64,000 nt of DNA, taken from the NCBI GenBank assembly GCA_964403045.1, contig CAYOEP010000001.1, positions 9,009-73,008 of the forward strand, given 5' to 3'. Origin of the DNA: an uncultured Candidatus Saccharibacteria bacterium (GTDB taxonomy: Bacteria; Patescibacteriota; Minisyncoccia; UBA6257; 2-01-FULL-56-20). The position numbers and the translations under genes were made by a program. The notes beneath the pieces were generated by a model. That model was not told where the DNA came from. It did no database searches and saw only the letters and a list, made by a program, of their open reading frames with translations. Shown here in pieces: positions 1,095 to 49,924 of this stretch (positions are counted from its first letter, which is position 1; the number at the start of each line of letters is the position of its first letter).

Positions 1095-1108
1095 TTTCCT
1101 TGTTTTCT

Positions 1109-2323
1109 TTAGGGAAGGTAAGTAAGAGAGAGAGAAATATTTGCAGACGTAATTCCAAGCTGATCAGTGACATTTTCTGCTTCAACCAGAATATTTATTT
1201 CTTTCTTCTGTTTTACGTCAGTCATGTCTATGTCAAGAAAGGTTTGATTTTTGGGATTTGTTACAGAAGCACGATTTCCATCTATTTCCCATGAGAGGAT
1301 GATGCTAGCAAGGGCATCTTTGCTGTAGTAGAATATTTTTGCAGGGAGGCGTGCTTTTTGCGAGGAAAACACATGATGAGGAAAAGGCGCCTCGAGAACC
1401 ACCTTTGGAAAAATTACAGGCACGCGTATGGTAGTTACTGCACCCAGCCTTTCAGGGTGGTTTTTATAGTTTGATACTTCTACTCTTACCCTGTGGTAAG
1501 TATCTCCCATTCTAAATGTGCGGAAGGAGAAAGTCTGCAGCCCTATGCCGCTCTCTATAAGTTCATCATCAAGATACCATCGTATTTGCCTATTCGAGAG
1601 ATCTACCAGCTTATTGTTGTCTATAATATTGAATGACACGTTAATTTTGGTGGAGGGACCAGGGAGAGCTTTTCCTTGATACCCACGCGGTACGACACTT
1701 TCCGCTTTCCAGTCTATGAGAAATTGCACACTTGCTTCCTTGGCAAGTACTTCTTCTTCAGATTGTGGAATAGACATAAGGTAATTATTAAAACTCTCAA
1801 GCAACTTATCAAGAAGAGTGGTTGCTGCAGGATTATCTAAGGAGGGGGGGTTTTTTTCTAACTGTGAGAGCATTTCAAAAAAACTAGCTTCTGTTGTATT
1901 AGTTTGTTTGCCCTCTGTTGTAATATTAAGAGAATTAAGAAACTGTTCTAATGCTTGCTGAGAGGATTGGTTAGTAGCACTTCCGCTATTGAAATAAGTT
2001 TGATTAAGTTGCAATACTGATTTTACACCATCGATGATCTTTTGCCTCATGCTTTTTTTGAAGCCTTCTGCTTTGAGGTTGTTTTCTAACTCTTGGACAA
2101 GCTGTTGCTGATTTAATTTTCCGTTGGAGTATGCATCGAGGAGTGCGTTGCTAATGATATTTTTAAGAGATATTACTTCCGCTGAAGCACCTGCAGCAAC
2201 GGCAGACCCGGCATTTGCGGAGCTTAAGGAGAAAGAAAGGAAGGCTATGACAAATATGACAAAAAGGAAAATTATTGTTAGAAATCTCGCCCTAGCTTGC
2301 ATACTTGCATAATTGTTTACCAT
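1109..2323 (-). CDS. Secreted protein in the T4SS-like operon (hypothetical; helical N-terminal half, beta-rich C-terminal half)
   Basis: N-terminal signal/TM (FLTIIFLFVIFVIAFLSFSLSSANA) and no recognisable catalytic motif. It sits between the VirB4 and pilin genes on the same strand. Confidence 0.5.
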   Translation of the reverse strand: MVNNYASMQARARFLTIIFLFVIFVIAFLSFSLSSANAGSAVAAGASAEVISLKNIISNALLDAYSNGKLNQQQLVQELENNLKAEGFKKSMRQKIIDGVKSVLQLNQTYFNSGSATNQSSQQALEQFLNSLNITTEGKQTNTTEASFFEMLSQLEKNPPSLDNPAATTLLDKLLESFNNYLMSIPQSEEEVLAKEASVQFLIDWKAESVVPRGYQGKALPGPSTKINVSFNIIDNNKLVDLSNRQIRWYLDDELIESGIGLQTFSFRTFRMGDTYHRVRVEVSNYKNHPERLGAVTTIRVPVIFPKVVLEAPFPHHVFSSQKARLPAKIFYYSKDALASIILSWEIDGNRASVTNPKNQTFLDIDMTDVKQKKEINILVEAENVTDQLGITSANISLSLTYLP

Positions 2324-2390
2324 TTACCACTTGTGCTCCTCGGCTTTTACATTATAACATAACCACCCTTCTCGGATGCGCAGAACTCTC

Positions 2391-2741
2391 CTACTTTGAT
2401 GTTCTCGTGGTTTTCGCAATAACGTTTGCTTTTTTTGCAATCTTTGGATTATTAGTAATAAGCACAGTTATTAAAAAGCCGATAGTTTGTCCGAAAGGAA
2501 AGCCAAGAAGATCTGCAATACTTGTTGCAAGGTAAGCATTTCCTCTAACACCTTTAATGTTGAACCAGAGCTGAAGTGAAAACCAGAGGATAAGGCTGTA
2601 GGCTTTTGCAAAAGCAAGTAAAAAAAATCCAAGAATAGGTATAGCTACAAGGAACTCCCCCGCGACATCAAGCCCGTCACTTGCAAAAAGAAGGGGGAGT
2701 ACAATTAAAATTGTGGGGAGAGAGAATTTTTTTCCTTCCAT
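2391..2741 (-). CDS. Small polytopic membrane protein, T4SS-associated (hypothetical)
   Basis: MEGKKFSLPTILIVLPLLF... with about 3 TM helices. The ORF-track start at 2882 overlaps the VirB4 3' end, so an internal Met at 2741 was chosen. Confidence 0.4.
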   Translation of the reverse strand: MEGKKFSLPTILIVLPLLFASDGLDVAGEFLVAIPILGFFLLAFAKAYSLILWFSLQLWFNIKGVRGNAYLATSIADLLGFPFGQTIGFLITVLITNNPKIAKKANVIAKTTRTSK

Positions 2742-2754
2742 AATAGATAATAGA

Positions 2755-4497
2755 TTAGGAACCTTCGTCTGACTCTTGTAGCTCTTGAGCTTGCTCCATA
2801 AGCTGTTTGGGGTCGGTGGTAATAATTTTGTCTTCAAAGTAGGAAGCGATGATTTGAATGGCAACATGGTTTTGCCCCGCAAAGAAAAGGCCGGTCCCCC
2901 GCGGGGCTTCGAGGAGATAATTTTTCTCTGCTTCTGTGAGGTTGAATGCTTTCCCTACCACATCAATAGTCGCGGGCGATTGGCGGAGGAGAAGCTGGAT
3001 AGTGGAGTTGGTGATAATGGGGCGCCCGTATTTCGAGTTCAGGAAATCTTCCACGTCTTGGGTGATGGTGGTAATGCCAAGATAGTACTTTCGCCCCCTC
3101 TTAACAAGACCAAAGAGGAAGCGCGCGCCTTCCTCGTGCTGCATCATTGTCCACGCCTCGTCCACGATGAGGATACGCTTCGCGCGCCGCGCTCTGACGA
3201 GATTCCAGATAAAATTCAGTACAATATACATCGCGATGGGGCGGAGCTCATCTTCGAGATCGCGGATAGAGAAGATAATAAAGCGATTGTTTACGTCGAT
3301 GTTGGTGGGCTTGTTGAGGAATCCCGAAAAGCTCCCCTTGGTGTATTTGTAGAGGCGGTCAGCCATCCCCCGTCCCCCTTCGAGGTTGCGGAGAATAGTT
3401 TCGAGATCTTCGAGGAGCGGCGGCTCCGCTCCGGTGAAGTCTTCTCCTGGTACGATTTCGCGGGAGGCATATGCCTCGGTGATGGCGCGGTCGAGGATAG
3501 AATCCTCCTCGCTACTTAGTGAGCCGCCCAGCATTAGCTTGAGAAGTCCTGCGATATTGACAATATGCGAGCGGAGTACATCAGACGGATCTTCGCCTTC
3601 TGGCACGACGGGAACGTCGAAGGGATTAATGTGCTCTTCTGAGGAAAGGGAAATGTTGAAGTAGCTCCCCCCGAACGCCTCCGCGAGCGGCTTGTACTCA
3701 TTTTCAGGGTCAATCACGATGACTTCCGTGCCCATCATTAGGGAGCGGAGGATTTCCAGTTTGGTGGCATAGGACTTTCCTGCGCCGGATCGCGCGAACA
3801 CGACTTGGTTGGCATTTTCCAGCGAGAAACGGTCAAAGATAATAAGGCTGTTGTTCTGGCGGTTGATGCCGTACATAATGCCCTCGTCGGAGGTAAGGTT
3901 CTCTGAAACGAAAGGAAAGAAGGAAGAAAGCGGCCCCGAGTTCATTGGGTTCGTGATGGAAATTTTGTCTTCTACCATAGGCAGGATGGTGGAAAATCCC
4001 TCGAGCTGCTGGAAGAGTGCTGGCTTGAAGTAGGTAAGCTTCGCGTCCATCAGTGAAAGGACTTTGCTTTCCAGCTTCGCAAGCTCCTCTTTGCTGTCGG
4101 CATAGATTGTAAGGTAAACACCTACGTTGAAAAGTTTTTCTTGTGATTGCTGGAGAAGGTCGCGGAGATTTTCCACATCGTGAAGCGCAGTTTCGAGCAA
4201 GGGGTCCCGCACTTCCCCCTTTTCCTCTTTGTCTTCAAGCTGGGATTGTATCTGCGCGGTCTTTTTTCGGAGCTTCTTGAGCGCGATGCCGGTGTCGACA
4301 GGTGAGATATGGATGGAAATATCGAAAAGATTGGGGAGGTTGATGAGGGGCGCGAACCAGCCGGTGGAAAGATAGCGGGGATAAGAAAGGATATAGAGTG
4401 TTTTCGCAAACTTATCTCCTATCTTGAGATAGTTCGACTCGACTTTGATGCCTGAGGAGGCAATGATTTTTTTGATACTGTCAAACCTTTCTGACAT
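2755..4497 (-). CDS. virB4: VirB4/TrbE/CagE-family T4SS ATPase, C-terminal ATPase part
   Basis: Walker A FARSGAGKSYATK and Walker B ILIVDEAW. Upstream is the conserved PRYLSTGWFAPLINLPNLFDISIHISP region typical of VirB4. Confidence 0.85.
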   Translation of the reverse strand: MSERFDSIKKIIASSGIKVESNYLKIGDKFAKTLYILSYPRYLSTGWFAPLINLPNLFDISIHISPVDTGIALKKLRKKTAQIQSQLEDKEEKGEVRDPLLETALHDVENLRDLLQQSQEKLFNVGVYLTIYADSKEELAKLESKVLSLMDAKLTYFKPALFQQLEGFSTILPMVEDKISITNPMNSGPLSSFFPFVSENLTSDEGIMYGINRQNNSLIIFDRFSLENANQVVFARSGAGKSYATKLEILRSLMMGTEVIVIDPENEYKPLAEAFGGSYFNISLSSEEHINPFDVPVVPEGEDPSDVLRSHIVNIAGLLKLMLGGSLSSEEDSILDRAITEAYASREIVPGEDFTGAEPPLLEDLETILRNLEGGRGMADRLYKYTKGSFSGFLNKPTNIDVNNRFIIFSIRDLEDELRPIAMYIVLNFIWNLVRARRAKRILIVDEAWTMMQHEEGARFLFGLVKRGRKYYLGITTITQDVEDFLNSKYGRPIITNSTIQLLLRQSPATIDVVGKAFNLTEAEKNYLLEAPRGTGLFFAGQNHVAIQIIASYFEDKIITTDPKQLMEQAQELQESDEGS

Positions 4498-4502
4498 AGG
4501 CG

Positions 4503-5225
4503 CTAGGATGTTGCATTGTCGCTGGGAGCATTTTCCTCTCGTGTTTCTTGGGGTAGCTCGAGATCTTCCCGCTCCACAGTTTCCGGATTGTAGAAGTTGT
4601 AGAAAAGCTCTACGATTTCTTGGTCGTTGAGCACCTTTGTTTCCAACCCCATCGCACGGATTCCTCCCTCCACCTGTGCAACCCGCTGATTGAGCTGGTC
4701 GAGGTTGCGTGCAAAATTTTTCTCTGCCTCTTCTTGGATTTTCTTTTCCCGTTCCTTCTTACTCTCTTTTTTGAAGAATGGGAAAATGCCGCCAAATTTC
4801 GCGCCCGCCCCGCTGGCTAGCGAAACGGAGCCGGAGAACGTAACCACGACGAAGAATTTTTTCTCCATAATTTCATTTTCAGCGACGAACGCTTTCACAA
4901 ACTCGCGGTACTCGGTAAGCTGGTCGCGCAGGAGCTCGGACGGCTCTTCCTCAATACGCTTGTCGATAGTGGCAATGTAATGGTCGATATTGAGCTTGCG
5001 GGAGTGCACAATGATCTGCAGGGGAAAATCGATTCCATTGAGAAAATTTTGAAAGCTGTGCGTGAGGATGTTCTGCTCGTCAACTGATTTAAGAGAGAAA
5101 TTAACTCCGGAGACCATAATAATTTTCAAGAGGCGCCCGTCTTTTGCAAGAATTGCACCTTCCTTGAGGTCCTTGATAGGGATAAGGTCTTGCGTGTTGC
5201 CAAAATTCGCAGTGCTGGAGCTCAT
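4503..5225 (-). CDS. virB4: VirB4 N-terminal domain encoded as a separate ORF (split gene, or frameshift/pseudogene)
   Basis: IPIKDLKEGAILAKDGRLLKIIMVSGVNFSLKSVDEQ... matches the conserved start of VirB4/TrbE. It stops at TAG 4503-4505; the next ORF starts 5 nt downstream in a different frame. Confidence 0.6.
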   Translation of the reverse strand: MSSSTANFGNTQDLIPIKDLKEGAILAKDGRLLKIIMVSGVNFSLKSVDEQNILTHSFQNFLNGIDFPLQIIVHSRKLNIDHYIATIDKRIEEEPSELLRDQLTEYREFVKAFVAENEIMEKKFFVVVTFSGSVSLASGAGAKFGGIFPFFKKESKKEREKKIQEEAEKNFARNLDQLNQRVAQVEGGIRAMGLETKVLNDQEIVELFYNFYNPETVEREDLELPQETREENAPSDNATS

Positions 5226-5290
5226 AGAGATGGTAAGATTTTTGCTGCTTTAATTATATCCTGAGGGGGGCAAAGAGAAAAATGTTGTGG

Positions 5291-5794
5291 TTAATAATCT
5301 ACCCGCTTCGCGATCTTGCGTTGTCCTGAAATGTCTTCGAGAACTTCATAGCGCTCTTGCTGGCTTGCTGCCGCCTGCTTCTTTTGGGAGGAAGATTGCA
5401 GTTTGTGCCACGCCTGCTTGAGGGCAGTGCCGTAGATAATTTGGTCGAGGGCAATCCCGCTTTTCTTAGCTTCCTCCCGCAGTGCATCTTTCGATTTTTG
5501 CATATGGGGCTGATCCGGCTTCCACACGTAGGTTTGTGGGTTCCAGATGAAGAAGAACGCGGAGAGGAGGACTTTTGGGAGTTCGCGGCCATTGATTTTG
5601 ATGAAAGCAAGGGCGCCGGCAGCAGAAACGAGCACAAGGGAAATCATAAACCATGTCCCCATATTGCCGAGGAAAAAGAAGAGGAAAAACGAAATCACGC
5701 CCGCAGAGCCCACGTAGAGGAACTGCTTGAGCGTAAAAGGTCCGATGATTTTGTCTTCGGTTTCTATGAACTGGGGAACTTGGAATTGCGCCAT
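5291..5794 (-). CDS. PrgI-family (VirB3-analog) small membrane protein
   Basis: The N-terminus FQVPQFIETEDKIIGPFTLKQFLYVGSAGVISFFLFFFLG followed by a second TM is typical of PrgI-like proteins of Gram-positive-type T4SS. Confidence 0.6.
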   Translation of the reverse strand: MAQFQVPQFIETEDKIIGPFTLKQFLYVGSAGVISFFLFFFLGNMGTWFMISLVLVSAAGALAFIKINGRELPKVLLSAFFFIWNPQTYVWKPDQPHMQKSKDALREEAKKSGIALDQIIYGTALKQAWHKLQSSSQKKQAAASQQERYEVLEDISGQRKIAKRVDY

Positions 5795-5875
5795 AGCTTT
5801 GCTACCAGTATACCGCAGAATGGCCTGCCGCTACACTCTCGTCTCGCGGCTCTTAGGAGCGCTTTTGGGGAGATG

Positions 5876-6898
5876 TTATTTATCGGAAAGCTTTACTTTT
5901 TTGAGATGGGTGGTGTCTACTACCACACGGGGCGGGGTGGTAGCGCGCGGCGGTGGAGGCGGCGGAGGAGGAAGCGTGCCGCGCGCCTCTTTCTGCTGAG
6001 GGCGCGGAGGCGCTTGGGGCGGTGGAGATTGCGCGGAGGACGTGCCAATTTCAACGTGGGCAGGGCGGATATGGACGGTGGCAGACTGGATAGTAGAAGG
6101 AGCAGAGAAATCCTTTTTCTTCTCGAGAACATTTGATTTTACGGAGAGCCCTTTCTTGATCGGGGCGGCATCGCCGCGCTGGTAGAGCATATGCGGGGCT
6201 CGCACGGGAGGTTGCTGTGCGGGGCGGTGCGGTTGCGGCGGTGCGCTTGGCACAGGCGGGTGCGGGGATGCAGGCGGAGGGGAAGGATGAGAAACTGCCG
6301 CCGGCTTGGGAGTTGGCGGCTTGGGGCGAGGCGCAACAGGGGCTTGAGGCTTATGGATAACTACGCGGGGAGTGGAAATGGTGACTTCCTGCTGAGGAGG
6401 CTGCGGAGGTGCCTTTAGCGGAGGAGGGGCAGATTTATGCGAAGAGGTTGGTTGAGGAGGCGCGGAAGGAGGAGCTGGCTGTGCCGCTATTGCTTTTTTA
6501 GGGGGAAGCGTGGGGGGCGGTGTTTTTTTTTCTGGCTCCTGCGTTTCTTCTTCGTGGGGATGTGGGAGCGGCGCGTATACCTTGTCGAGCTCGTCGCGAA
6601 TGCCTTGGAAGATTCGATTCTCGAGGGAATTTGCAATACTTTCAGCAGTTTTGGGGTCAATCGAACTCTCTTGAGTAATAAGATGCGCTGCTTCTTCGGG
6701 ATGGAGAAAGCCGAGCAGCACGAGACCTGTCGCGCTCGCGATGGCAGGAACTTTTTCGGAGGGTATATGATGTTGCTCGGCAATTCGCGAAATTGTTTCC
6801 GCTATTTGAGGAGAGAAAATTAAGTCCTGAAGGAACTTGGGCAGGGTAAGAAATCGCTTGCGCGCCTGCTGAGTTGTAGGAATTGGAATGGCTGCCAT
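5876..6898 (-). CDS. Proline-rich low-complexity protein (hypothetical, T4SS-associated)
   Basis: Long PPxP/PQPP tracts and a poly-P run (PPPPPPPP). A structured N-terminal ~110 aa precedes the low-complexity region. Confidence 0.5.
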   Translation of the reverse strand: MAAIPIPTTQQARKRFLTLPKFLQDLIFSPQIAETISRIAEQHHIPSEKVPAIASATGLVLLGFLHPEEAAHLITQESSIDPKTAESIANSLENRIFQGIRDELDKVYAPLPHPHEEETQEPEKKTPPPTLPPKKAIAAQPAPPSAPPQPTSSHKSAPPPLKAPPQPPQQEVTISTPRVVIHKPQAPVAPRPKPPTPKPAAVSHPSPPPASPHPPVPSAPPQPHRPAQQPPVRAPHMLYQRGDAAPIKKGLSVKSNVLEKKKDFSAPSTIQSATVHIRPAHVEIGTSSAQSPPPQAPPRPQQKEARGTLPPPPPPPPRATTPPRVVVDTTHLKKVKLSDK

Positions 6899-6918
6899 AA
6901 GGAGTTAATAGGAGTTAA

Positions 6919-9171
6919 TTATGACGACGGATGTTCTTCGCTTGTGACGTTGCCCTTTTCATCAAAGGTGGTGCGAGAACGTACATTCCTCGGCGCCTCT
7001 TCAAGGTTTTCTTTGTCCACCGGCCTTCCCGACGCATCGTAGAGGACCACTTTTTCTTTTGTTGGTTCTGGGGATTTCTTCTCAGCCGAAGGCGTGCCGC
7101 CTTTCAGGAAAATCTCCAGCTCTTTCTCTCCCCGGATGCCAAGGATATTAAGCGCAGCGTTGCTGTTGAACCAGCGGCGGTTTTGCGGGCTGAAGTGCTC
7201 CGGCTTGAGCCCGATATCTTGAGCAGTCTTCTGGTAGGCGCCAAGCGCGTTGTTTTTAGCGAGTTCTTTAAAGAATTCCGACAAATTGTGCGGCGAGAAT
7301 CCCTTCGCAATGCCCAGTATAATTTCTGCCCGGAGAGAATGCAGACCAGCAGCATCCAGTCCATATGGAGTTTTGCCCTTTTTGATATCTTCCTCGCTGA
7401 CGGAAAAGATCTTTGAGAGAGCTTCCGGGCTTGCGGCCTTGAGAGCTTTCTCCTTCTTTTCTTTGAGTTTTTGAATTTCTTCTGCAGGGGCGCCGCGTTT
7501 TTCGGCGGCTTCGAGTTCTTGTTTTGCTTCCACGAGAGCAACGCCGGACTTTCCGCGAAGTTCTTCAAATGTCTTGGCACGGTGGAAGCGCTTAAACTTC
7601 CCTGCATTCTCTTTCGAGAGTAATTTCTCGGCTCCTTGTACTTCATTGAGTCGCCCCGCCTTATTGATGAGCTCCAGCATTGCAATTTGCTCGGGGGTGC
7701 TTTTTGCTGCGTGCACTGATTTGATCATCTGGTCTACGCTCATCTTCTTCTCAAGGCGTGCCTTTTCTGCATCTACGAGCTTCTCTCCGTGGCTCCGGGC
7801 GATCGTTTCTAACCCTCTCCCTGCTCTCTTTGTAAGTCTGCCAACGACAGGCACACTGTGAAGTGTTTTAATCCACCCCTCTGCTGCCTCCTTGTTCTGA
7901 AGTTGTTCAGTGATTTTCTGACCTCGTTCTGTTCGCAACGGCGCAGTGGCTATTCTCCCCATGCCTCTCCCGATGCCTCGCGCTCCGCGCGCCGCTCCCA
8001 TGCCCATAAACCTTCCGCCTTTCTTCGCCCATGCCATTGCCGTTCCTGCTCCTGCAATAGAAAGCCGTTGTGCTACTACAAGTCCTCCCCATATAAGACC
8101 AACGACTACCGCAGATTGCAATCCTGCTTTCAGAATATGGGCGAAAGTCTCTGTTATGAACTGAACTATGCCTTTATAGGAATCGCCTTTCGTTGCTGCA
8201 TCGACGTAAGGCTCTGTTGCAACTCCCGCCATTGCTGCAACCCATAAAAAGAAAAGCATAATTGGCGCGAAGATGGTCCACTTGATGAATACCGACCACC
8301 ATTCACTCCAGTATTTTCTCGTAGTTGGAAAGACCCAAAGTACCCAGATAAGTGGCATGATAATAAGAAGAATAGAAAGCACTACATACCGTATGAGGAG
8401 CATTATCCCAATTGCCCCAACGACTACCGATGTCAGAGCAAGTGCAACGGTCATGAATCCGAGCACGACGATAACATAAAATACTCCTTCCGATTGCGCT
8501 GTTTCCGCGAATACCGATTTTAACTCATTAGCGGCTTGTTTATCTAAATGCCCGGAGCCCGGCTCATTTTCCGGCGTAAAAAACCGCTGGGGATTCAAGG
8601 CCCCCATAATCCTTATGGATAAGCCATCCGGTCCATTGAATCCCTTATCGATGATATATGAGGTAAAAGAATCTGCGGTCCCGATAATGGGCCCTACGAT
8701 CACGAGACTGAAGTTGACGAGAAGCGCGGCGATGATGAGCTTTGCGAAGGCTTTCTTGATGCCGTATTCTTGGACACGAAGAATAGTTGCAACAGCGATG
8801 ACAATTAGGATTGCAGCGAAGCCAAGGTTTGCGATAGAAAGTGATGCCTGAAAACCGTTTTCAACAGTTAGATTGTTATTGAGAATATTCTTGCTTACTT
8901 CGAGAATGAGGTCGATAAAGAAGAATTCCACGTTGAGGATGAACGCGAAAAATGTCGCTATTGCTGAGGCGAGCATTCCGACCACATAGCCGAAGAACCA
9001 TTGGAGGGCGCTCTCAAAAGAAGCTCTCGCGGGCAAGGGAGAAGAAATTCCTACGAATGTTGCAACGGCAAGGAGCAGAAATAGGAAGGGGACTAAGGGG
9101 CGTTTCTTGAATTTTGGACGTACCTGCACAATGGTCAAAACCCTTCGCTTTTTTGATGGTTGTATTGCCAT
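6919..9171 (-). CDS. VirB6/TrbL-like polytopic membrane protein with long cytoplasmic C-terminal extension
   Basis: At least 7 TM helices in the N-terminal 400 aa, followed by a Gly/Arg-rich segment (GMGAARGARGIGRGMGR) and a helical, charged C-terminal tail. It lies immediately upstream of the virB4 block. Confidence 0.55.
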   Translation of the reverse strand: MAIQPSKKRRVLTIVQVRPKFKKRPLVPFLFLLLAVATFVGISSPLPARASFESALQWFFGYVVGMLASAIATFFAFILNVEFFFIDLILEVSKNILNNNLTVENGFQASLSIANLGFAAILIVIAVATILRVQEYGIKKAFAKLIIAALLVNFSLVIVGPIIGTADSFTSYIIDKGFNGPDGLSIRIMGALNPQRFFTPENEPGSGHLDKQAANELKSVFAETAQSEGVFYVIVVLGFMTVALALTSVVVGAIGIMLLIRYVVLSILLIIMPLIWVLWVFPTTRKYWSEWWSVFIKWTIFAPIMLFFLWVAAMAGVATEPYVDAATKGDSYKGIVQFITETFAHILKAGLQSAVVVGLIWGGLVVAQRLSIAGAGTAMAWAKKGGRFMGMGAARGARGIGRGMGRIATAPLRTERGQKITEQLQNKEAAEGWIKTLHSVPVVGRLTKRAGRGLETIARSHGEKLVDAEKARLEKKMSVDQMIKSVHAAKSTPEQIAMLELINKAGRLNEVQGAEKLLSKENAGKFKRFHRAKTFEELRGKSGVALVEAKQELEAAEKRGAPAEEIQKLKEKKEKALKAASPEALSKIFSVSEEDIKKGKTPYGLDAAGLHSLRAEIILGIAKGFSPHNLSEFFKELAKNNALGAYQKTAQDIGLKPEHFSPQNRRWFNSNAALNILGIRGEKELEIFLKGGTPSAEKKSPEPTKEKVVLYDASGRPVDKENLEEAPRNVRSRTTFDEKGNVTSEEHPSS

Positions 9172-9180
9172 TACCTCTTT

Positions 9181-10932
9181 TTAGAGAATTCCTTTTCTTA
9201 TGATTTCATTGAGCCTAGCTTTCGCTACAGACTTCACAAGATCAATTATTGTTTTCATTATCAGCTCTGAATTTTGCCCTACCGTGTTTGCTGTCTTTTG
9301 AATTCTTTCTTGGGCAACTTCTTGAGAGAGGGCTTCGACGACGAATTTCGCAGGTGTAGTATTTTTCCATTCATCGCAAAGTTTAACTGCACATGTATTA
9401 GGAACTTCAGAAGTTTTACAGTCCAAAGTTCCCTCTATGTAATCTTCTCCATAGTCTACCTTCGGATCATCGCCCTTGCCAATATATGCTCTATGAGAAG
9501 AAACGCACACACGAGTAGGGCGAAATCCGTTTCCCGATTCGGCGTCGGATTTCTCTGCTTCTTGCTTTTGCGACGCCCTCAGACCAACTTTTTCCTTCAT
9601 TGTAACAAGAGCCCCAAAAATGTTATTCTGCGGTTTCAGCATTTCACCGTAAGCGACCCACCCCCCCGTTTCGAAGCTTCGGTAAAAGTCTTTTACGTTA
9701 CTCACTACGTCATCTAATGTACACTCTACGCCTTCTTCTGGGGGAACATTAGGAAGCGGAGTCGCAGCAATAGTGAGGAGTGGACCAAAGGAATTGCACA
9801 GGAAAGGCGCGCTTTCTGCAACAACTTCACCCGCCGCGCTCTTTGCTGCCTTTTTGAGAAATCCTTTCCAGTCAGTGACAAATTTCGGTTTTTTCCCGCC
9901 TCTAACCCACGCAAGCGTTTGCCTTGCAATGCCATTAATTATCTTTGACTTGGCACTCTCTAGTAATTCTTCGCCTATTACATCCAAAATCATTTGAGCT
10001 ATGTTGCCTGGGTCAAACACAATATCTCCGAGTCCTAAGAAGGCATGTGCTGTGGGGATAGTCATAAACCCCTTTATAAAAGCAATGAAATGACTTTCCT
10101 CATGCTTCTGCTTGAGCAAGGAAGAAGGGTTCAGGGCAGAATGTAGCTCTTGGGAAAGTTGGTGCGATAGATTCTGTAGTTCTTTTTTCTGGACGTTGAA
10201 GACAAGAAGGGACTTTAGAGGATCAGTTGAATTGACGAGCGTGGAAAGTTGCTTTATTTGGGCAATCAAAAGAACAAATTGCTTGTGGAAAGAAGAGAAT
10301 AGCTCAGGCGCATGCAGCTCTAATACTTCCTGGAGCATCTTCTCTAGCATGAGATTTGTAGCTATGGAAAGGGTTCCTGCTTCCTCCTTGTTGGCAGCAA
10401 TATCGGTAAGATTTTTGATAGCACGCGTATATTTGTTGAAAAACCCCTCAAGACGCTCAAGATAGCCAGATGTATCTGCGGACGGATCTATAATTGCCTG
10501 GGAAGCAATTTTCTCTGCCTTGCGTCGAAGCAACTGCAATTCTTGCTTTATTTCGGAAACTCGATCTGGCGTGAGAATGTCCGTAGAGTTTGTTTGAGCG
10601 AGATTCAATTGCTGCAGAATCTGCTCTTTGCTAAGCTTATTGGCGTCTTTCTCTTTGAGGAAAAGAGAAACTTTGTGTAAATCAATTGCAGTAATTTCTT
10701 TGATAACAGCGTCGGAAAACGCTTCAGTGAGGGTAAAGGGTTCGGAGGAAAGGGTTGCTGGGGGGATAGCTTCGGTGCCGATAGCATTGACAGGGACAGT
10801 CGTCTGGACGTCCTGCGGCGGCGCGGAGGAGTGCGCAGAGAATGAAGAAGAGAAAAAGAACGAGAAAGAGCCCGTCGCTGTTGCTACGACAAGGAATGTG
10901 GCGGCAAGCGTTCTGAACGATGGATGCTCCAT
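9181..10932 (-). CDS. Large secreted Cys-containing protein, first gene of the T4SS-like operon (hypothetical)
   Basis: Signal peptide (MEHPSFRTLAATFLVVATATGSFSFFF), 583 aa, several Cys pairs near the C-terminus. Confidence 0.5.
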   Translation of the reverse strand: MEHPSFRTLAATFLVVATATGSFSFFFSSSFSAHSSAPPQDVQTTVPVNAIGTEAIPPATLSSEPFTLTEAFSDAVIKEITAIDLHKVSLFLKEKDANKLSKEQILQQLNLAQTNSTDILTPDRVSEIKQELQLLRRKAEKIASQAIIDPSADTSGYLERLEGFFNKYTRAIKNLTDIAANKEEAGTLSIATNLMLEKMLQEVLELHAPELFSSFHKQFVLLIAQIKQLSTLVNSTDPLKSLLVFNVQKKELQNLSHQLSQELHSALNPSSLLKQKHEESHFIAFIKGFMTIPTAHAFLGLGDIVFDPGNIAQMILDVIGEELLESAKSKIINGIARQTLAWVRGGKKPKFVTDWKGFLKKAAKSAAGEVVAESAPFLCNSFGPLLTIAATPLPNVPPEEGVECTLDDVVSNVKDFYRSFETGGWVAYGEMLKPQNNIFGALVTMKEKVGLRASQKQEAEKSDAESGNGFRPTRVCVSSHRAYIGKGDDPKVDYGEDYIEGTLDCKTSEVPNTCAVKLCDEWKNTTPAKFVVEALSQEVAQERIQKTANTVGQNSELIMKTIIDLVKSVAKARLNEIIRKGIL

Positions 10933-11009: not shown

Positions 11010-11837
11010 TCAAGAACATGGGCCGCTGGCGCGGGAGGCGTGGAGAAGGCCGCTCAGCTTGCAGAGCGTTGCGGGGGTGAGGAGCTGGGCGCGTGCGGAA
11101 GGCGGCAGGGAGAGCCTGGAAAGTGCTGCACGAATTGCTACCTCTGGAAATGAAGTTTTAAGGTTATTGACAAGCGTTTTTCGGGGGTGCGCGAATGCGG
11201 CGTGGAGCGTGGTGTAATAGCGTTCCCTATCGCAGGGAAGGCGGTGGCGGGTGGTGAGCTTGATAAGGGCGGAGTCTACACGCGGCGGCGGCATGAAGGA
11301 AGTGCGGGGGATTGTGGTGATGAGGCGCGGCGAAGCCCAGAACTGCACGCTGAGCGCGAGCTTGTTGGCGCGCGGCGCGGTAGCGACAATGCGGTGCGCG
11401 ACTTCCTTTTGCACGACCAGCAGGCACCCGCGCGGCGGCGGCGCGAGCTCGCCTATTTTGCGGAGAAGGATGCCAGTAAGCGAATAAGGAATGCTCCCTA
11501 CAATCACATAGGAAGCATTGGAAAGCGAGGAGGGAATCTGAGGGAGAAGATCGCGTGCGTCGCCTTCCTGCAGGACTGCGGGGATAGGACATTGGGGGAG
11601 CGCTCGCGCAAGAAATGCTGCCAGCCTTCGATCTTTCTCAATTGCAATGATGTGGCGGTAGGGAGCGGCTCGGTCGCTCGCCAGCGGCAGGGTAAGCGCT
11701 CCCTTCCCCGCACCTATTTCCACCACTGTTTCCGCAGCAAAACTGCGCGTTGCATCGAGAATGCGTTGGATGATTGCCCTGTCATTGAGGAAATGCTGTC
11801 CCCATTGCTTCCTTTTCTGTGGGGGGCTATATGGCAT
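11010..11837 (-). CDS. rsmA: 16S rRNA (adenine1518/1519-N6)-dimethyltransferase
   Basis: GQHFLNDRAII signature, SAM-binding VVEIGAGKGALT, C-terminal helical domain. The start was trimmed to MPYSPP..., because the longer ORF overlaps the divergent gene. Confidence 0.85.
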   Translation of the reverse strand: MPYSPPQKRKQWGQHFLNDRAIIQRILDATRSFAAETVVEIGAGKGALTLPLASDRAAPYRHIIAIEKDRRLAAFLARALPQCPIPAVLQEGDARDLLPQIPSSLSNASYVIVGSIPYSLTGILLRKIGELAPPPRGCLLVVQKEVAHRIVATAPRANKLALSVQFWASPRLITTIPRTSFMPPPRVDSALIKLTTRHRLPCDRERYYTTLHAAFAHPRKTLVNNLKTSFPEVAIRAALSRLSLPPSARAQLLTPATLCKLSGLLHASRASGPCS

Positions 11838-11880
11838 AAAGTTATCGATTCTCCTTGCGTGTTGCTTTCTATATTGTATA

Positions 11881-12924
11881 ATGCCAAGTATTAGTACAGC
11901 TTCTACAATTGCAAAGAACATCCAGGAAAGCAAGGCGTTGGTGGGAAAAGCGCTTTTTCTCTTGTGCATTGCGGTAGTGCAAGGAGTGCTATGGTATAGC
12001 GCTGACAGCAGGAAGGGAATTCTTGGCGGTCCCGTGGAAGTGCAGAAAATTCTTGCTGCAGATATTGCCCTACCCCGCGCGGTGCTCTCCGATGTCCCTT
12101 TTCTCCGCGAGGAGAAAGCACGGGATGCTGCATTGGCGGCGCAGGGGCAACTCCTCCCGTCCAGCGCCGAGGAAAGTGCCGCACTCCGCGCGACAGGGAA
12201 TCCTCTAGGGGTGCTCGCAGGCTCTCCCGGTGTGGTTATCTACCATGTGAAGAAGGGCGACACGCTTTCTGGGATCGCGAGTCGGTTTGGAATTTCCCTA
12301 CGGACGGTGGTGGCAGCAAATCCTGAGGTGCGCGCCCGCGCGCTCCACATCGGGCAGTCACTCTACATTTTGCCAGTTGCCGGTGTGGTCTACACAGTAC
12401 TTCCCGGCGACACGCTTGCGAGTATTGCGAAAAAGTTTGACGTTACCGTAAAAGAACTGCGGCAATACAACCACACGCTTGAAAGCGAGGGGTTGCGCCC
12501 CGGGATAAAGCTTGCAATCCCTGGTGTCGTGCCTGAAATAAAGGCGGACAGATCCTATGCAAAAGCGCGGCGCTACTTCGTGCAGCCCGCCCAAGGACTG
12601 AACTGGGGAAAGCTCCATCCTAAGAATGCGGTAGACATTGCAAATGCGTGCGGCACGGAAGTGGATGCAGCGGCTGAAGGGCTCGTGGTAGATATAGGAA
12701 GGAAGGGATGGAACAGCGGCTATGGCCACTATGTGACTATTGAGCATCCCAATGGGGCAAAGACGAAATATGGTCACTTGGGAGAAATTTCTGTTGCCAT
12801 AGGAGACTATGTTGCCCAGGGGCAAAGAATTGCCGAGATGGGCAATACAGGAAACGTGCACGGGCCCACTGGCTGCCATCTTCACTTTGAAGTTTACGGG
12901 ATGGCGAATCCCTTTGTGCGCTAG
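11881..12924 (+). CDS. LysM-domain M23 family peptidase (membrane-anchored)
   Basis: Two LysM repeats (YHVKKGDTLSGIASRFGIS...; YTVLPGDTLASIAKKFDVTVKELRQYN) and an M23 catalytic region (HYVTIEHPNGAKTKYGHL...GNTGNVHGPTGCHLHFEV). Confidence 0.85.
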   Translation: MPSISTASTIAKNIQESKALVGKALFLLCIAVVQGVLWYSADSRKGILGGPVEVQKILAADIALPRAVLSDVPFLREEKARDAALAAQGQLLPSSAEESAALRATGNPLGVLAGSPGVVIYHVKKGDTLSGIASRFGISLRTVVAANPEVRARALHIGQSLYILPVAGVVYTVLPGDTLASIAKKFDVTVKELRQYNHTLESEGLRPGIKLAIPGVVPEIKADRSYAKARRYFVQPAQGLNWGKLHPKNAVDIANACGTEVDAAAEGLVVDIGRKGWNSGYGHYVTIEHPNGAKTKYGHLGEISVAIGDYVAQGQRIAEMGNTGNVHGPTGCHLHFEVYGMANPFVR

Positions 12925-45817: not shown

Positions 45818-47125
45818 ATGCCGTTTGGCTTAACACAAAAACAGCTCGCCATTGTGCTCATCGGGGCTATTCTAGTGGGAGGCATTGGCTTTTTCCTCTA
45901 CATTAACATGGGCGGTAAGCGTAATAGCAGCGGCGTGCCGGGAGGGGATGTTATCGAGTTAACAGCATGGGGCCCCTTTCCTGAAGCGATGCTTAAGGAC
46001 GCAATCGATAGTTTTGATGGCGCCAAAATTATCTACACCCAAATCGAACCTTCGAAGTATAAGAAGAAGCTTTTGGATGCGCTTGCGGCAGGCAAGGGGC
46101 CGGATATCTACATGGTGGATAGCCGCGCGCTTCCTCAAGAGCTGGAGAGGATTGTGTCTGCTCCCGGCGGGAAGATTACGCCGGTAGAAGTGCAGCAGCT
46201 TTTTCCCGATGTAGTAACGCACGATTTTGTATATGAGTCAGAAGATGGCACTCCAAATATTTACGGGCTCCCGCTCTACCTTGACACACTTGCCCTTGTC
46301 TACAACAAAGATATTTTCAACCAAGAAGCCGTCCTCCGTCCTCCTGCTACTTGGGAGGAATTCCAGCAGGTCGTGCAGCATCTTCGTAAACTTAATCAGT
46401 ACGGGCAAATTACCCGCGCCGCCGCCGCGATAGGGGGCTCAAAGAAAAGCATCGCAAACGCGGTGGATATTTTAAACCTCTTGATGCTGCAAAATGGCAC
46501 AAAATTTGTGGACGAAAAGACAGGACACGCGGTTTTTGCTGGAGGCAGGGCTGGGGAAGAGGCGTTGAACTTCTATCTTCAGTTTGGCAACGCGGGATCC
46601 CCCTACTACACCTGGAATGATCTGCAGGGCGACTTCCTCCAGCGGTTTGTGGACGGAAAAGTGGCGATGATTTTTGCCTATAAGTCGCAGGTAAACGACA
46701 TTCTCGCCCGCGCCCCGTTCCTCAATTTTGCAATTGCCCCTGTGCCGCAGCCGGAAGGGAGGGAAGTGGACGTCAACTATCCTTCCTATTGGGGACTTGT
46801 AGTCTCATCGCAAACGAGGGAGCCGGAGGTGGCATGGGACTTTGTAGTGCACGCGGCAACAGACGAGGACGCTGCACAAGCAAGAATTACCGCTACCAAC
46901 TTGCCCCCCGCACTCAAATCGCTCTATGAGCCTTTGCTGAATGATCCTAGCTACTACGCGTTCGTACAGGAGGCACTGACGGCGAAATCGTGGCACCAGC
47001 CGGATGAAGAGCTCGTGCAAGAGATATTTTCTACAGCAATGCAGCGTGTGCTTGCGGGGAAAACGGATGTGCAGGGGGCGCTGCAGGAGGCTGAGGAGAA
47101 ATTGAACGAGGAAGTACTACAATGA
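45818..47125 (+). CDS. ABC transporter extracellular solute-binding protein (family 1, sugar-type), membrane-anchored
   Basis: N-terminal TM anchor and an SBP_bac_1-like pattern (GPDIYMVDSRALPQE...MIFAYKSQVND). Confidence 0.7.
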   Translation: MPFGLTQKQLAIVLIGAILVGGIGFFLYINMGGKRNSSGVPGGDVIELTAWGPFPEAMLKDAIDSFDGAKIIYTQIEPSKYKKKLLDALAAGKGPDIYMVDSRALPQELERIVSAPGGKITPVEVQQLFPDVVTHDFVYESEDGTPNIYGLPLYLDTLALVYNKDIFNQEAVLRPPATWEEFQQVVQHLRKLNQYGQITRAAAAIGGSKKSIANAVDILNLLMLQNGTKFVDEKTGHAVFAGGRAGEEALNFYLQFGNAGSPYYTWNDLQGDFLQRFVDGKVAMIFAYKSQVNDILARAPFLNFAIAPVPQPEGREVDVNYPSYWGLVVSSQTREPEVAWDFVVHAATDEDAAQARITATNLPPALKSLYEPLLNDPSYYAFVQEALTAKSWHQPDEELVQEIFSTAMQRVLAGKTDVQGALQEAEEKLNEEVLQ

Positions 47126-47595
47126 AGATAATGCATAGCTGGAAAAAAAAGGTATTTCCGACCTTTGTCGCCCTCGCCACAGGAATTCTGGTTGCCCGCC
47201 CCGCGAGTGCCCACAGCATTGGGCTTCCGTACTGGCCTTCCAAGAGTAACCCAATCGTGCCGTGCAGTGCGTTGGGAACTGGTGGAAGGCCGGCTTGCAC
47301 CAGCTGGTGCGATCTTATTCACCTTGCCCAGCACGTGATTTATTTTCTGCTCACGCTTGCTATCTTTATCGTCGGACCGTTTATGATAGGGGTAGGAGGC
47401 ATTATGCTGATGATTTCGGCGGGCGCTCCGGAGCGGATGGCGCAGGGCAAGAAGGTGCTCACCGGTGCGGTAATTGGAATGCTGATCGGGCTGTTTTCCT
47501 ATCTCATCGTGGGTACCATTTTCTTCCTTATTGGGATAACATTTGGATGGAGGGGAAGCAACGGCAACTGGTCGTCAATACAATGTAGAGTATGA
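47122..47595 (+). CDS. TrbC/VirB2-like pilin paralog 1
   Basis: Signal peptide, a Cys-containing segment, and two TM helices around the motif ISAGAPERMAQGKKVLTGAVIGMLIGLFSYLIV. Confidence 0.6.
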   Translation: MKIMHSWKKKVFPTFVALATGILVARPASAHSIGLPYWPSKSNPIVPCSALGTGGRPACTSWCDLIHLAQHVIYFLLTLAIFIVGPFMIGVGGIMLMISAGAPERMAQGKKVLTGAVIGMLIGLFSYLIVGTIFFLIGITFGWRGSNGNWSSIQCRV

Positions 47596-47957
47596 GGAAG
47601 AATCTTTTTCAGTTGAGGTGGTGCCTATCGGTGTTCAGGAGCTATGTGTATTCGCTGGGCATAGTGAGTATTGTGCAAGCAGGCGGGTATGGGTATGGGT
47701 CCTTTAACCTGCCAAGCCCTATCGGCTGTGAGGATTTTGGCTGTGTGGCAGAGAAGATCGCGATTGCCCTAAGCTATCTCGCCGTGCCTATCCTTACGGT
47801 AATGGTGCTTGTGGGCGGCTACCAGATTATGTTTTCCGCGGGCAACCCAGAGAAACTCAAAGCAGGCAAGCGCACAATCCTCTATGCGGCGATTGGCTTC
47901 CTCGTGGTGCTCATTGCCCAGTCGGCACGGCTTATCATTATGAGTATTTTTACTTAA
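47592..47957 (+). CDS. TrbC/VirB2-like pilin paralog 2
   Basis: The motif MFSAGNPEKLKAGKRTILYAAIGFLVVLIAQS lies between two TM helices. The start overlaps the previous stop. Confidence 0.6.
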   Translation: MRKNLFQLRWCLSVFRSYVYSLGIVSIVQAGGYGYGSFNLPSPIGCEDFGCVAEKIAIALSYLAVPILTVMVLVGGYQIMFSAGNPEKLKAGKRTILYAAIGFLVVLIAQSARLIIMSIFT

Positions 47958-48023
47958 TATGGTACAATAAAGAACGTGCATGTGGACATCGAAAGGTCGT
48001 TTATTTAAAATGAGGGCGAGTGC

Positions 48024-48443
48024 ATGAGACTAAGCAAAGAAAAATTTATAGGAATCTTTCGAGAAGGTGTAATAAAAGTAATTGTTCCAGTTACAATTAC
48101 TGTAGCAGGGCTTTGGCGAGCGCCTCTTGCTTATGGCCTACTAGCAGTGCGCAATGATGCGCCGCAGCTTAAAGTGCGGGACTGGAAAGGTATAGAAACT
48201 ATGCTTTGTAACTTTGCGGATACAATGGCGGTGCTCTTCTTTGTGGTTGCTGTAGTGTTTACATTAGTTGCGGCATATCAGTATCTTGTATCAGGGGGTG
48301 ATACCGAGAAAGTTAAGAAGGCGTCCAAGACTCTCACATATACAGCAGTAGCGGTAGTGGTGGCGTTGTTGGCGTTCGCATTTCCACGAATAGTCTTTTC
48401 TATTTTTGGGGGTGGTAGAATGAATGATGCGTGTGCGAGTTAA
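48024..48443 (+). CDS. TrbC/VirB2-like pilin paralog 3
   Basis: YQYLVSGGDTEKVKKASKTLTYTAVAVVVALLAFAF. Confidence 0.55.
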   Translation: MRLSKEKFIGIFREGVIKVIVPVTITVAGLWRAPLAYGLLAVRNDAPQLKVRDWKGIETMLCNFADTMAVLFFVVAVVFTLVAAYQYLVSGGDTEKVKKASKTLTYTAVAVVVALLAFAFPRIVFSIFGGGRMNDACAS

Positions 48444-48484
48444 CTTATATCAGTATAAATTGAGATCAAAGGTCGAAAAAGTGT

Positions 48485-48868
48485 GTGCAGCAAAAAACTA
48501 TGCGTAAGGTTGTAAAAGGGATGGCAAGTATCGCAGCGTTAGTAGTTCCGGTAGTAGCGCTCGCGGCTGGGAATGCAGGCGGGCCTAACCCTGTTCCTGA
48601 CTCTCCCATCAAAACCATTTCAGGTGCGCTCCAGCTTCTCTGTAGGATTTTTGCGTGGCTGTTTACCTTCTTCATCGTCATTGCCGTCATCTTCGTGTTG
48701 CTTGCTGCGTGGAAGTATCTCACTGCGGCAGGTGATGCGGACAAGGTGAAGTCAGCGAACCAGAGCTTGATTTATGCCGCGGTTGCGGTTGGCGTGGCGC
48801 TTATCGCAAAGGGAGTCCCCACGATTGTGTCTACATTGATGGGCGGGCAGGACATTACTGCCTGCTGA
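48485..48868 (+). CDS. TrbC/VirB2-like pilin paralog 4
   Basis: Signal peptide (ASIAALVVPVVALAAG) and the motif WKYLTAAGDADKVKSANQSLIYAAVAVGVALIAKG. Confidence 0.6.
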   Translation: MQQKTMRKVVKGMASIAALVVPVVALAAGNAGGPNPVPDSPIKTISGALQLLCRIFAWLFTFFIVIAVIFVLLAAWKYLTAAGDADKVKSANQSLIYAAVAVGVALIAKGVPTIVSTLMGGQDITAC

Positions 48869-48906: not shown

Positions 48907-48948
48907 GAAATTTAAAGCCCCCGGCACGTGTTGTGTTGGGGGCTTTGA
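48907..48948. terminator. Bidirectional intrinsic terminator between the pilin array and the convergent GC-rich block
   Basis: AAAGCCCCC-ggcacgtgttgtgtt-GGGGGCTTT with T-runs on both sides. Confidence 0.7.
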
Positions 48949-48952
48949 GGTT

Positions 48953-49924
48953 TTAGGGATCAACGACCCAGGTTTTCACTGTACCCTCTCCCATCAACCT
49001 CACCACGTTCGTGGTGAGGCTGATGTACTCGTCCGGCTGGAGCACCACCGGGGCATGTCCCAGCTCCTGAAGGTATACTGGCTGATCCTCAGGAGTGACT
49101 GCCCGAAAGTCGTGCTCTCCGTAATCGAGCCAGGGGCTCCATTGGTTAGGATGGAGCTCCAACACGAACGGGTTTTCTTTGGTGTACTGCGGCCCGATGT
49201 TGATGACGCGGACCGCGTTCGGTGCTGGTAGTGGTGCATTCACTGCCGCCGTGCGGGGACTGGATGGGGACAGCTGCACCTCGCCGCGGAACACCTGGGC
49301 AAGGCCGTGGTCAATGCCTCGCCGTACGTTCCCCAGTGCGCTGGTCGCCTCGGGGAAGAAGAGCGAGATGATGAGTCCCGCAAAAACCACGACGGCAAGC
49401 CGCCGCGACCATTTACGGAACTCATCGCCGCCCTTCCCGAGAAATCCGAGAATAGCGAGGACGCCCGCGGCGAGAAACAGCACGGGGATCGCAAGGGGTC
49501 GCCTCCAGAGAGGCATCACACTCATAAAGAGCGCGACGCTACTCTCGACGAGCAAGGTCCACAGCACGAGGTTGACATACCTCGCGCCGAGTCCCCGTTC
49601 CTTGTTCCTCCCTGTTGCCACAAGCGCCGCGTCCACGATCATCCCCAAGGGCGCCGCGATGAACGCCAGAAGCAGTGTTGCGGCAACCCAGAAGAGTCCC
49701 GCGATTGCCGCAAGCGGAGCTCCCACCAGCGGAAGCACGCCGAAAAGCAAGAGGGGCAGCGGTACAAGGACGACTACAAGAGCCACCCTACGCAGCGAGG
49801 CGAGGTATACCTCGCCTACAGGCCTTCCTGCCGGATCGATGCGCGCAAGGCGCGCAACGATCGCCGTAAACTCCTGCCCGCCGGAGGCGAGCAGTTCCCC
49901 AAGAATTTCCCAGAGAATTCTCAT
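48953..49924 (-). CDS. Polytopic membrane protein with C-terminal soluble domain (hypothetical), GC-rich block gene 3
   Basis: 6-7 TM helices. Local GC and codon usage (GC3-rich) are distinct from the flanking genes. Confidence 0.5.
   Translation of the reverse strand: MRILWEILGELLASGGQEFTAIVARLARIDPAGRPVGEVYLASLRRVALVVVLVPLPLLLFGVLPLVGAPLAAIAGLFWVAATLLLAFIAAPLGMIVDAALVATGRNKERGLGARYVNLVLWTLLVESSVALFMSVMPLWRRPLAIPVLFLAAGVLAILGFLGKGGDEFRKWSRRLAVVVFAGLIISLFFPEATSALGNVRRGIDHGLAQVFRGEVQLSPSSPRTAAVNAPLPAPNAVRVINIGPQYTKENPFVLELHPNQWSPWLDYGEHDFRAVTPEDQPVYLQELGHAPVVLQPDEYISLTTNVVRLMGEGTVKTWVVDP

Follow-up and report, generated by a model that had tools for sequence, protein, structure and literature searches.

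In a 64,000-bp stretch of DNA from an uncultured Candidatus Saccharibacteria bacterium (contig CAYOEP010000001.1 of assembly GCA_964403045.1, positions 9,009 to 73,008; the whole stretch is hereafter called the window), four small tandem genes probably form a VirB2-like pilin array of a type IV secretion system (T4SS), of a kind known from Patescibacteria and made up of conserved pilin classes. The four open reading frames (ORFs) and a fifth paralog are homologous and share one architecture, their synteny and cysteine patterns are conserved in related genomes, and their evolutionary rates are asymmetric. A first-pass annotation, made from the DNA letters, had placed four consecutive genes on one strand between positions 47122 and 48868 and a fifth at 426-1094 on the reverse strand, and the ORF list of the window agrees with it exactly. 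These genes, together with the solute-binding-protein-like (SBP-like) gene directly upstream, are as follows (classes as assigned below):

45818..47125 (+): SBP-like gene, 435 aa, with an N-terminal membrane anchor (Pfam SBP_bac_8 E = 5.9e-28, SBP_bac_1 E = 2.9e-25)
47122..47595 (+): ORF1, putative class-1 VirB2-like pilin, 157 aa, with a probable signal peptide ending ASA/HS
47592..47957 (+): ORF2, putative class-2 VirB2-like pilin, 121 aa; a database version begins 18 codons later
48024..48443 (+): ORF3, putative class-4 pilin, the fast-evolving internal copy, 139 aa
48485..48868 (+): ORF4, putative class-4 pilin, the conserved terminal copy, 127 aa with a GTG start; the NCBI record starts at ATG 48500 and gives 122 aa
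426..1094 (-): ORF5, the fifth paralog, 222 aa, a class-5 pilin module followed by a Cys-rich C-terminal tail of ~100 aa; the last gene of the T4SS operon

The four array genes are all adjacent and on the same strand, with spacings of -4, 66 and 41 bp from ORF1 to ORF4. An ATGA overlap joins the stop codon of ORF1 to the start of ORF2, and another joins the stop of the SBP-like gene to the start of ORF1. ORF3 and ORF4 are annotated as genes in the NCBI record and are identical to the hypothetical proteins D6779_12145 and D6779_12150 of a 'Candidatus Parcubacteria bacterium' metagenome-assembled genome (MAG; Patescibacteria group). When all window ORFs of at least 30 aa were searched with a hidden Markov model built from the five paralogs, no further pilin copy was detected.

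Hydropathy, alignment and blastp revealed in the four genes and the fifth the common pilin architecture that had been proposed for them. All five proteins have a signal-like hydrophobic N-terminus (A-x-A-like cleavage sites were assigned by eye), a Cys-bearing polar segment, and two hydrophobic spans of ~20-35 residues around a short polar loop. The inter-helix loops (SAGAPERM, SAGNPEKL, SGGDTEKV, AAGDADKV and SAGNASKQ in ORF1 to ORF5, respectively) follow the general motif S/A-G-x-x-E/D-K. The first-pass annotation had put a longer conserved core between the helices; this is right for the S/A-G loop and wrong for the L-x-Y-A-A...L-I-A part, which lies at the start of and within helix 2. A helical hairpin was predicted by AlphaFold2 both for ORF1 (helices at residues 60-98 and 103-140) and for mature ORF4 (17-52 and 57-90), with a predicted local distance difference test score of ~75 in the core. 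Pairwise identity within the array is 17-37%. The closest pair is ORF3 and ORF4 (36.5% over 115 aa, E = 1e-22, blastp), followed by ORF2 and ORF3 (E = 1e-10), ORF1 and ORF2 (37% over 70 aa, E = 3e-9) and ORF1 and ORF5 (E ~1e-3), and on these scores the similarity among the paralogs is well beyond chance. Their most divergent parts in the five-paralog alignment are the Cys-containing N-terminal segments and the C-termini, as the first-pass annotation had noted.

The Pfam gathering score of PF18895 (T4SS_pilin, 26.6 bits) is exceeded by ORF2 (40.9 bits), ORF3 (34.4 bits) and ORF5 (34.1 bits), and ORF1 (21.2 bits, E = 3e-4) and ORF4 (20.4 bits, E = 6e-4), taken alone, fall below it. The latter two were placed in the family because of their blastp matches to ORF2 (3e-9) and ORF3 (1e-22), respectively. 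For ORF4 a second route runs through its database homologs P0153-P0156, which carry PF18895. A word-indexed search returned six proteins for ORF4 and, for ORF3, no database homolog beyond itself. A profile of the five paralogs, run against 1.84 billion representative proteins, retrieved 55,210 cluster representatives at E <= 1e-3. Membership of the array proteins in PF18895 is supported by these comparisons. The earlier assignment to the TrbC/VirB2 family by profile thus stands for PF18895, passed by ORF2, ORF3 and ORF5, and is not borne out by PF04956, which remained sub-threshold.

A pattern of the ORF4 family (alignment A3, six sequences), run over one genome per species, retrieved 32 related loci. 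All come from MAGs of Patescibacteria (Liptonbacteria, Paceibacteria/Paceibacterota, Parcubacteria, some labelled Saccharibacteria and some unnamed), and many are interrupted by contig ends. Three to six tandem pilin ORFs are present in every locus but L017, which has a single copy and is a second locus on the contig of L013. With each ORF of the related loci assigned to its best window paralog, the kept gene order is gyrA, SBP-like gene, class 1, (class 5), a gene of ~175 aa, class 2, and one to five class-4 copies. gyrA was found in 19 loci, the SBP-like gene in 22 (in each of them immediately before the class-1 pilin), class 1 in 21, class 5 in 19 and class 2 in 31. In most relatives the class-5 ortholog sits within the array, between classes 1 and 2; it is missing from the array in L021, L024, L026 and L033, as in the window. 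A XerC/D-type recombinase gene lies some kilobases downstream of related loci.

The orthologs are 37-43% (SBP-like), 27-48% (ORF1), 38-57% (ORF2), 41-58% (ORF4) and 34-49% (class-5 pilin module) identical to the window proteins. Median bit scores are 67-100 for the same class across genomes and 43 for different classes within a genome. Most of the divergence within the array would therefore be ancient specialisation, since same-class scores across genomes exceed cross-class scores within a genome. The terminal class-4 gene is positionally kept, with 917 of 1056 best hits running from terminal copy to terminal copy, a figure to be read with the ORF4-derived retrieval pattern in mind, which is biased toward ORF4 orthologs and favours an apparent conservation of this copy. 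The internal class-4 copies show no positional conservation, and the number of class-4 copies varies from one to five. By these comparisons, the positional orthologs that make up classes 1, 2 and 5 and the terminal class-4 copy are of ancient origin. The array is a long-established set of separate, conserved pilin classes rather than one in the course of recent diversification.

Two non-pilin genes belong to the kept order. The SBP-like gene of the window (45818-47125) is an 'orphan', having no adjacent ABC permease, and may be a functional partner of the pilins. A membrane-anchored non-pilin gene of ~175 aa, with the consensus TIGT..G.V..NNFY ... ACKLDV, separates class 5 from class 2 in each of five inspected relatives (L005 4370-4906, L006 4135-4728, L008 4137-4652, L010 4503-5057 and L029 4201-4827); it has no homolog anywhere in the window.

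Each class carries its own cysteine pattern. ORF1 has C48, C59 and C63 before helix 1 and C155 near the C-terminus; ORF2 has C46 and C51; ORF3 has C62 before helix 1 and C137 near the C-terminus; and in ORF4 C53 precedes helix 1 and C127 is the last residue. In an alignment of the class-1, class-2 and class-4 window proteins with their database relatives (A2, 11 sequences), every sequence has the Cys before helix 1, and ten have the C-terminal Cys. Among class-4 proteins from the loci and the window, 69 have both cysteines, 9 have neither and 8 have one only (P-value = 8e-7, Fisher test, a statistic that ignores shared ancestry). Both an N-terminal and a C-terminal Cys occur in 21 of 22 class-1 proteins (window copy included). 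Class-2 proteins have either a C-x4-C motif before helix 1 (GCEDFGC in ORF2) or no Cys at all, and ORF2 has no C-terminal Cys; class-5 proteins have Cys-rich C-terminal domains.

The co-occurrence of the two cysteines in class 4 suggests a disulfide that ties both ends of the protein. An intramolecular bond of this sort is topologically possible because both ends are extracytoplasmic in a two-helix protein with a cleaved signal peptide. T-pilin and RP4 TrbC are cyclised head to tail via a peptide bond, and an end-joining disulfide might be a functional analogue of that cyclisation. A full-text literature search found no paper joining Patescibacteria, VirB2 and disulfide.

Evolutionary rates were compared in a single genome pair, the window and L034 (Logan SRR7905022, a 949-bp contig), the only close relative found. 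ORF4 is 84% identical between the two and ORF3 44%. In ORF4, the core that runs from the conserved Cys to the C-terminus has 73 of its 75 residues identical and a ratio of nonsynonymous to synonymous rates (dN/dS) of 0.037; the ratio in the N-terminal part of ORF4 is 0.30. In the core of ORF3, dN is 0.38 and synonymous sites are saturated. Within the limits of this pair, the core of ORF4 appears to be under strong purifying selection, and rapid change appears limited to the internal class-4 copies (ORF3), the class-4 copy number and the exposed N-terminal segment. The first-pass annotation had taken tandem diversification of the pilins as a sign of antigenic variation or host specificity and had named dN/dS as a check. 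That reading survives for internal class-4 copies such as ORF3 and for the exposed N-terminal segment; it gives way to constraint for the ORF4 core and to conservation across the 32 loci for classes 1, 2, 5 and the terminal copy. The proportion of synonymous differences (pS) rises from 0.36 in the ORF4 core through 0.58 in the ORF4 N-terminal part to 0.77 in ORF3, a gradient compatible with strongly constrained codon use in a highly expressed ORF4 or with replacement of ORF3 by recombination.

Class-5 orthologs are 250-390 aa long, and all six that were scanned pass PF18895. One has a lysozyme-like SLT_3 domain near threshold at its C-terminus (26.6 bits vs 27). After a Gly-rich linker, class-5 pilins end in variable C-terminal domains (L006 3209-4180, L011 3497-4627, L002 4613-5527 and 426-1094 in the window). 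Two of them contain the motif SHANGYK.DL ... HWDV, which has no Pfam match and which we take to recall zinc D-Ala-D-Ala-type peptidases; the Cys-rich tail of the window protein (100 aa) gave no match. These tails suggest that the C-terminal domains exposed by class 5 vary and in some cases degrade the cell wall.

Long fused proteins with 2-17 T4SS_pilin modules per chain (e.g., P0002, P0007, P0011, P0015 and P0021), here called poly-pilins, account for most of the top hits of the profile search. P0170, named 'pilin' by NCBI and found in a Saccharibacteria assembly, has 365 aa and three modules; its gene (L035 6001-7098) lies beside PrgI and TraC-like genes. An origin of poly-pilins as read-through artefacts of an alternative genetic code was rejected for P0170, the one case checked, whose gene is a single uninterrupted ORF under translation table 11. 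The existence of such fused multi-module proteins makes it probable that neighbouring paralogs work jointly in a single assembly, not as exclusive alternatives (the Rosetta-stone argument), and suggests that the paralogs co-assemble.

The fifth paralog stands beside the T4SS genes, as the first-pass annotation had it: it is the last gene of an operon at 426-10932 on the reverse strand with VirB4, PrgI/VirB3 and VirB6-like genes, of monoderm type and on the same contig as the array. The other genes of this operon and an adjoining hydrolase gene are:

1109..2323 (-): 404-aa protein, function unassigned
2391..2882 (-): membrane ORF, 163 aa, overlapping the 3' end of the VirB4 gene by 128 bp
2755..4497 (-): VirB4-like ATPase, 580 aa (P-loop_TraG 2.5e-27, AAA_10, CagE_TrbE_VirB)
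4503..5225 (-): 240-aa protein with no Pfam match, a separate ORF preceding the VirB4-like ATPase
5291..5794 (-): PrgI/VirB3-like protein (PrgI 4.7e-9)
5876..6898 (-): Pro-rich protein, 340 aa, with PPPPPP runs and no Pfam match, between the PrgI-like and VirB6-like genes
6919..9171 (-): VirB6/TrbL-like polytopic protein (TrbL 5e-3, weak)
9181..10932 (-): 583-aa protein
11761..12924 (+): cell-wall hydrolase with LysM (6e-26) and Peptidase_M23 (5e-25) domains, adjoining the T4SS operon

The true start of the membrane ORF at 2391-2882 is probably further downstream, given the 128-bp overlap. The 240-aa protein is possibly a split-off N-terminal part of VirB4 or a TrsD-like component, and the Pro-rich protein might be a component spanning the cell wall. 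No coupling-protein or relaxase domain was found by Pfam among the ORFs scanned. The hydrolase is a candidate functional equivalent of VirB1; M23 and LysM domains occur in VirB1-type proteins of Patescibacteria (PMC12102498).

Two possible transcription signals lie within or next to the array:

47983..48011 (+): promoter-like site, TGGACA, 17 nt, TAAAAT, a weak consensus match in the 66-bp gap before ORF3
48911..48949 (no strand assigned): GC-rich 17-bp hairpin followed by UUUU, between the array and the convergent gene 48953-49924 (-)

A promoter scan of the region gave four sites against 2.3 expected from shuffled sequences, which is not significant. The segment 48866-48965 folds at -41.2 kcal/mol (z = -4.97), and none of 200 shuffles was as stable; the hairpin is a probable bidirectional intrinsic terminator closing the array. 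Three convergent genes on the reverse strand follow, encoding a polytopic membrane protein (48953-49924), a 197-aa protein with no match (49941-50534) and a 197-aa protein with a weak Big_1 Ig-like match (50542-51135). The related loci gave no blastp match (E <= 1e-8) to any of the three, and they may be lineage-specific surface proteins.

These observations lead to a most likely mechanism, in which pilus formation, disulfides, co-assembly and the roles of single classes are less certain than the identity of the array. The four ORFs are probably real, co-transcribed genes for Sec-exported, two-helix VirB2-like proteins of the T4SS_pilin family. Together with the fifth gene, which ends the virB4 operon, they probably represent five ancient pilin classes whose sequence and order have been kept across the clade. 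The propilins would be inserted into the membrane and then lose their signal peptides, leaving both short ends facing outward and held by class-specific disulfides, which in classes 1 and 4 would join the segment before helix 1 to the C-terminus. The VirB4/VirB3/VirB6 machine, helped by the M23-LysM hydrolase, would extract the subunits and polymerise them into one heteromeric pilus or channel for contact with a host cell or for uptake from it. ORF4, terminal and strongly conserved, would be the main subunit; classes 1, 2 and 5 would be specialised minor subunits, class 5 with a displayed C-terminal domain; and ORF3, the fast-evolving internal copy, would be the part adapting to host surfaces.

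Carried to its full extent, the mechanism becomes a Paceibacteria-type T4SS with a fixed five-class set of major and minor pilins that co-assemble into one heteromeric filament or channel. Disulfides from the Cys before helix 1 to the C-terminal Cys would pseudo-cyclise the subunits as a redox equivalent of T-pilin cyclisation, class 5 would bear an enzymatic or adhesive surface domain, the SBP-like protein would act as receptor or cargo-capture partner for uptake from the host, and the poly-pilins elsewhere in Patescibacteria would be the covalent version of the same assembly. We consider this combination, taken as a whole, unlikely to hold in every part.

Several points weigh against a pilus-forming set of conserved classes. 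All five proteins score below threshold with PF04956 (TrbC/VirB2, gathering score 27.9 bits), the best being ORF2 at 21.3 bits (E = 3e-4), followed by ORF1 at 10.2 bits, with no match for the others. Many relatives retrieved with the three-module poly-pilin as query bear both PF18895 and PF04956, some of them named 'pilin' or 'VirB2 component' in their sources, so kinship to PF04956 is plausible, with the window proteins themselves below its threshold. The profile search matched no pilin among PDB sequences. Foldseek against PDB gave no significant match (8dfu, the Aeropyrum conjugation pilus, ranked first with E = 3.7, and 8exh_A, the Agrobacterium T-pilus, second with E = 5.2), and as a helical hairpin is also a generic fold, the fold evidence is compatible but uninformative. 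The four-gene array lies 46 kb from virB4. The ideas of disulfides and of co-assembly come from covariation and the Rosetta-stone argument, not from structure, and to this are added the single genome pair, the shared ancestry behind the cysteine counts and the retrieval bias already given with those results. According to PMC12102498 and PMC12857230, the T4SSs of Patescibacteria have never been seen to bear a pilus, and monoderm T4SSs normally have none.

The absence of pili from monoderm systems also speaks for another explanation, in which the proteins are pilin-like but form no filament and serve as channel or stator parts of a monoderm T4SS in the cytoplasmic membrane, like the Mbov_0395 proteins of Mycoplasma integrative and conjugative elements (ICEs). 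The only notable NCBIfam match for ORF2-ORF5 is indeed to this family (NF045849), at 21-31 bits and below the cut-off of 40, and if a filament is built by extracting single subunits, poly-pilins with 6 to 34 helices are hard to account for without processing. The conserved extracytoplasmic Cys pairs and the large displayed domains of class 5 fit surface exposure, yet they are compatible with a membrane-embedded role, and specialists deem a pilus plausible since the array is essential in S. epibionticum (PMC12857230). We regard the non-filament explanation as rather improbable. A different function would follow if the paralogs were interchangeable major pilins, used one or a few at a time for antigenic variation or host-strain matching, a use that has been suggested for VirB2 paralogs in Anaplasma and Bartonella. 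The low identity within the array, the divergence of the exposed N-terminal segment and C-terminal tail, the variable class-4 copy number (1-5 across genomes, with internal copies that have no positional orthologs) and, weakly, the promoter-like site before ORF3 would all suit such switching, and the contrast between ORF3 (44%) and ORF4 (84%) in close relatives, with saturated synonymous sites, hints at allele replacement. However, classes 1, 2 and 5 and the terminal class-4 copy have near one-to-one positional orthologs over deep divergence, each with its own cysteine signature; the core of ORF4 is constrained (dN/dS 0.037); translational coupling links ORF1, ORF2 and the SBP-like gene; no recombination or inversion repeats or silent cassettes were seen, although no search was aimed at them; and fused multi-module proteins imply simultaneous use, which together make alternate use of the array genes doubtful.

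It is also conceivable that the ORFs arose by chance, or encode unrelated two-helix membrane proteins with spurious pilin matches. Two of the five do fall below the PF18895 gathering score, hydrophobic hairpins such as these drew weak matches to several unrelated families in the Pfam scan, and fold searches with them are non-specific. Yet every ORF has orthologs in kept order, in up to 31 genomes, the sequences show purifying selection with the loop motif and the cysteines conserved, three of the five exceed the curated threshold, and NCBI annotates ORF3 and ORF4 as genes. This possibility is extremely remote and is effectively refuted by the conservation data.

The pilin array of conserved classes has clear counterparts in the literature. 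A search of 3,035 Patescibacteria genomes with PF18895 and PF04956 found 441 VirB2 arrays of 2-11 tandem genes in 383 assemblies, with a mean identity of 25% and a maximum of 54%, and the idea of antigenic variation or host range was already proposed there, citing Bartonella and Anaplasma (Quinonero-Coronel et al. 2025, PMC12102498). An array was defined in that study as at least two pilin genes in tandem, or with one non-pilin gene between them, at i-Evalue <0.001 and >50% profile coverage; all four window genes fall within this definition, and their pairwise identity of 17-37% also fits. Since that article describes such arrays and the same host-range idea, the window array is an instance of the published phenomenon. 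It resembles the other Patescibacteria arrays, including the six-gene array of S. epibionticum and the 'Sec-secreted array' of TM7x, in its tandem small PF18895/PF04956 genes, low identity and a genome with a monoderm-type virB4. The published arrays, in contrast, are most abundant in Microgenomatia and Saccharimonadia and were studied near virB4, whereas the window array is of Parcubacteria/Paceibacteria type, lies 46 kb away and belongs to a gyrA-SBP-pilin locus (PMC12102498). The passages of PMC12102498 and PMC12857230 consulted make no mention of the class structure, the SBP partner or the cysteine patterns. As far as the literature searches show, the gyrA-SBP-pilin locus, the class-specific cysteines, the rate asymmetry and the poly-pilin fusions are undescribed.

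Compared with the TrbC/VirB2 pilins of diderms (Agrobacterium T-pilin, RP4 TrbC and F TraA), the window proteins have the same long signal peptide, two helices, short charged loop, both ends outside and VirB4/VirB3/VirB6 company, but they score below PF04956, have no match to solved pilins, come from a monoderm host and fall into five classes where the diderm systems have one gene; where T-pilin and TrbC use peptide-bond cyclisation, the conserved Cys pair possibly does an equivalent job. The VirB2 families of Anaplasma, Bartonella and Rickettsiales likewise have several divergent tandem copies with variable surface-exposed parts (PMC12102498), whereas here most copies appear to be ancient ordered classes under purifying selection and only the internal class-4 copies are variable. 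Mbov_0395 proteins are also small two-helix proteins of T4SSs in wall-less or monoderm hosts and give the best NCBIfam match, but they are encoded by single genes and not arrays, and the window scores stay below their cut-off. The (pseudo)pilin sets of type IV pili and type II secretion offer an analogy only: one conserved abundant subunit and about four specialised ones are encoded together there, in an unrelated fold with unrelated machinery, and five-class co-assembly here is suggested by the comparisons above.

The window thus brings no new kind of element, and the comparison gives the known arrays a testable structure, consisting of conserved (ORF4-type) versus variable (ORF3-type) copies, an SBP-like partner, disulfide signatures and fusions. 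The role of the T4SS in these bacteria has been called completely unknown (PMC11665869 and PMC12857230), and the class framework would guide which genes to tag, delete or model in studies of pilus formation by a monoderm T4SS and of its cargo. A six-gene pilin array and the T4SS were found essential in Southlakia epibionticum ML1 (Wang et al. 2023, as cited in PMC12857230), that is, essential to the epibiotic life of the only genetically tractable Patescibacterium.

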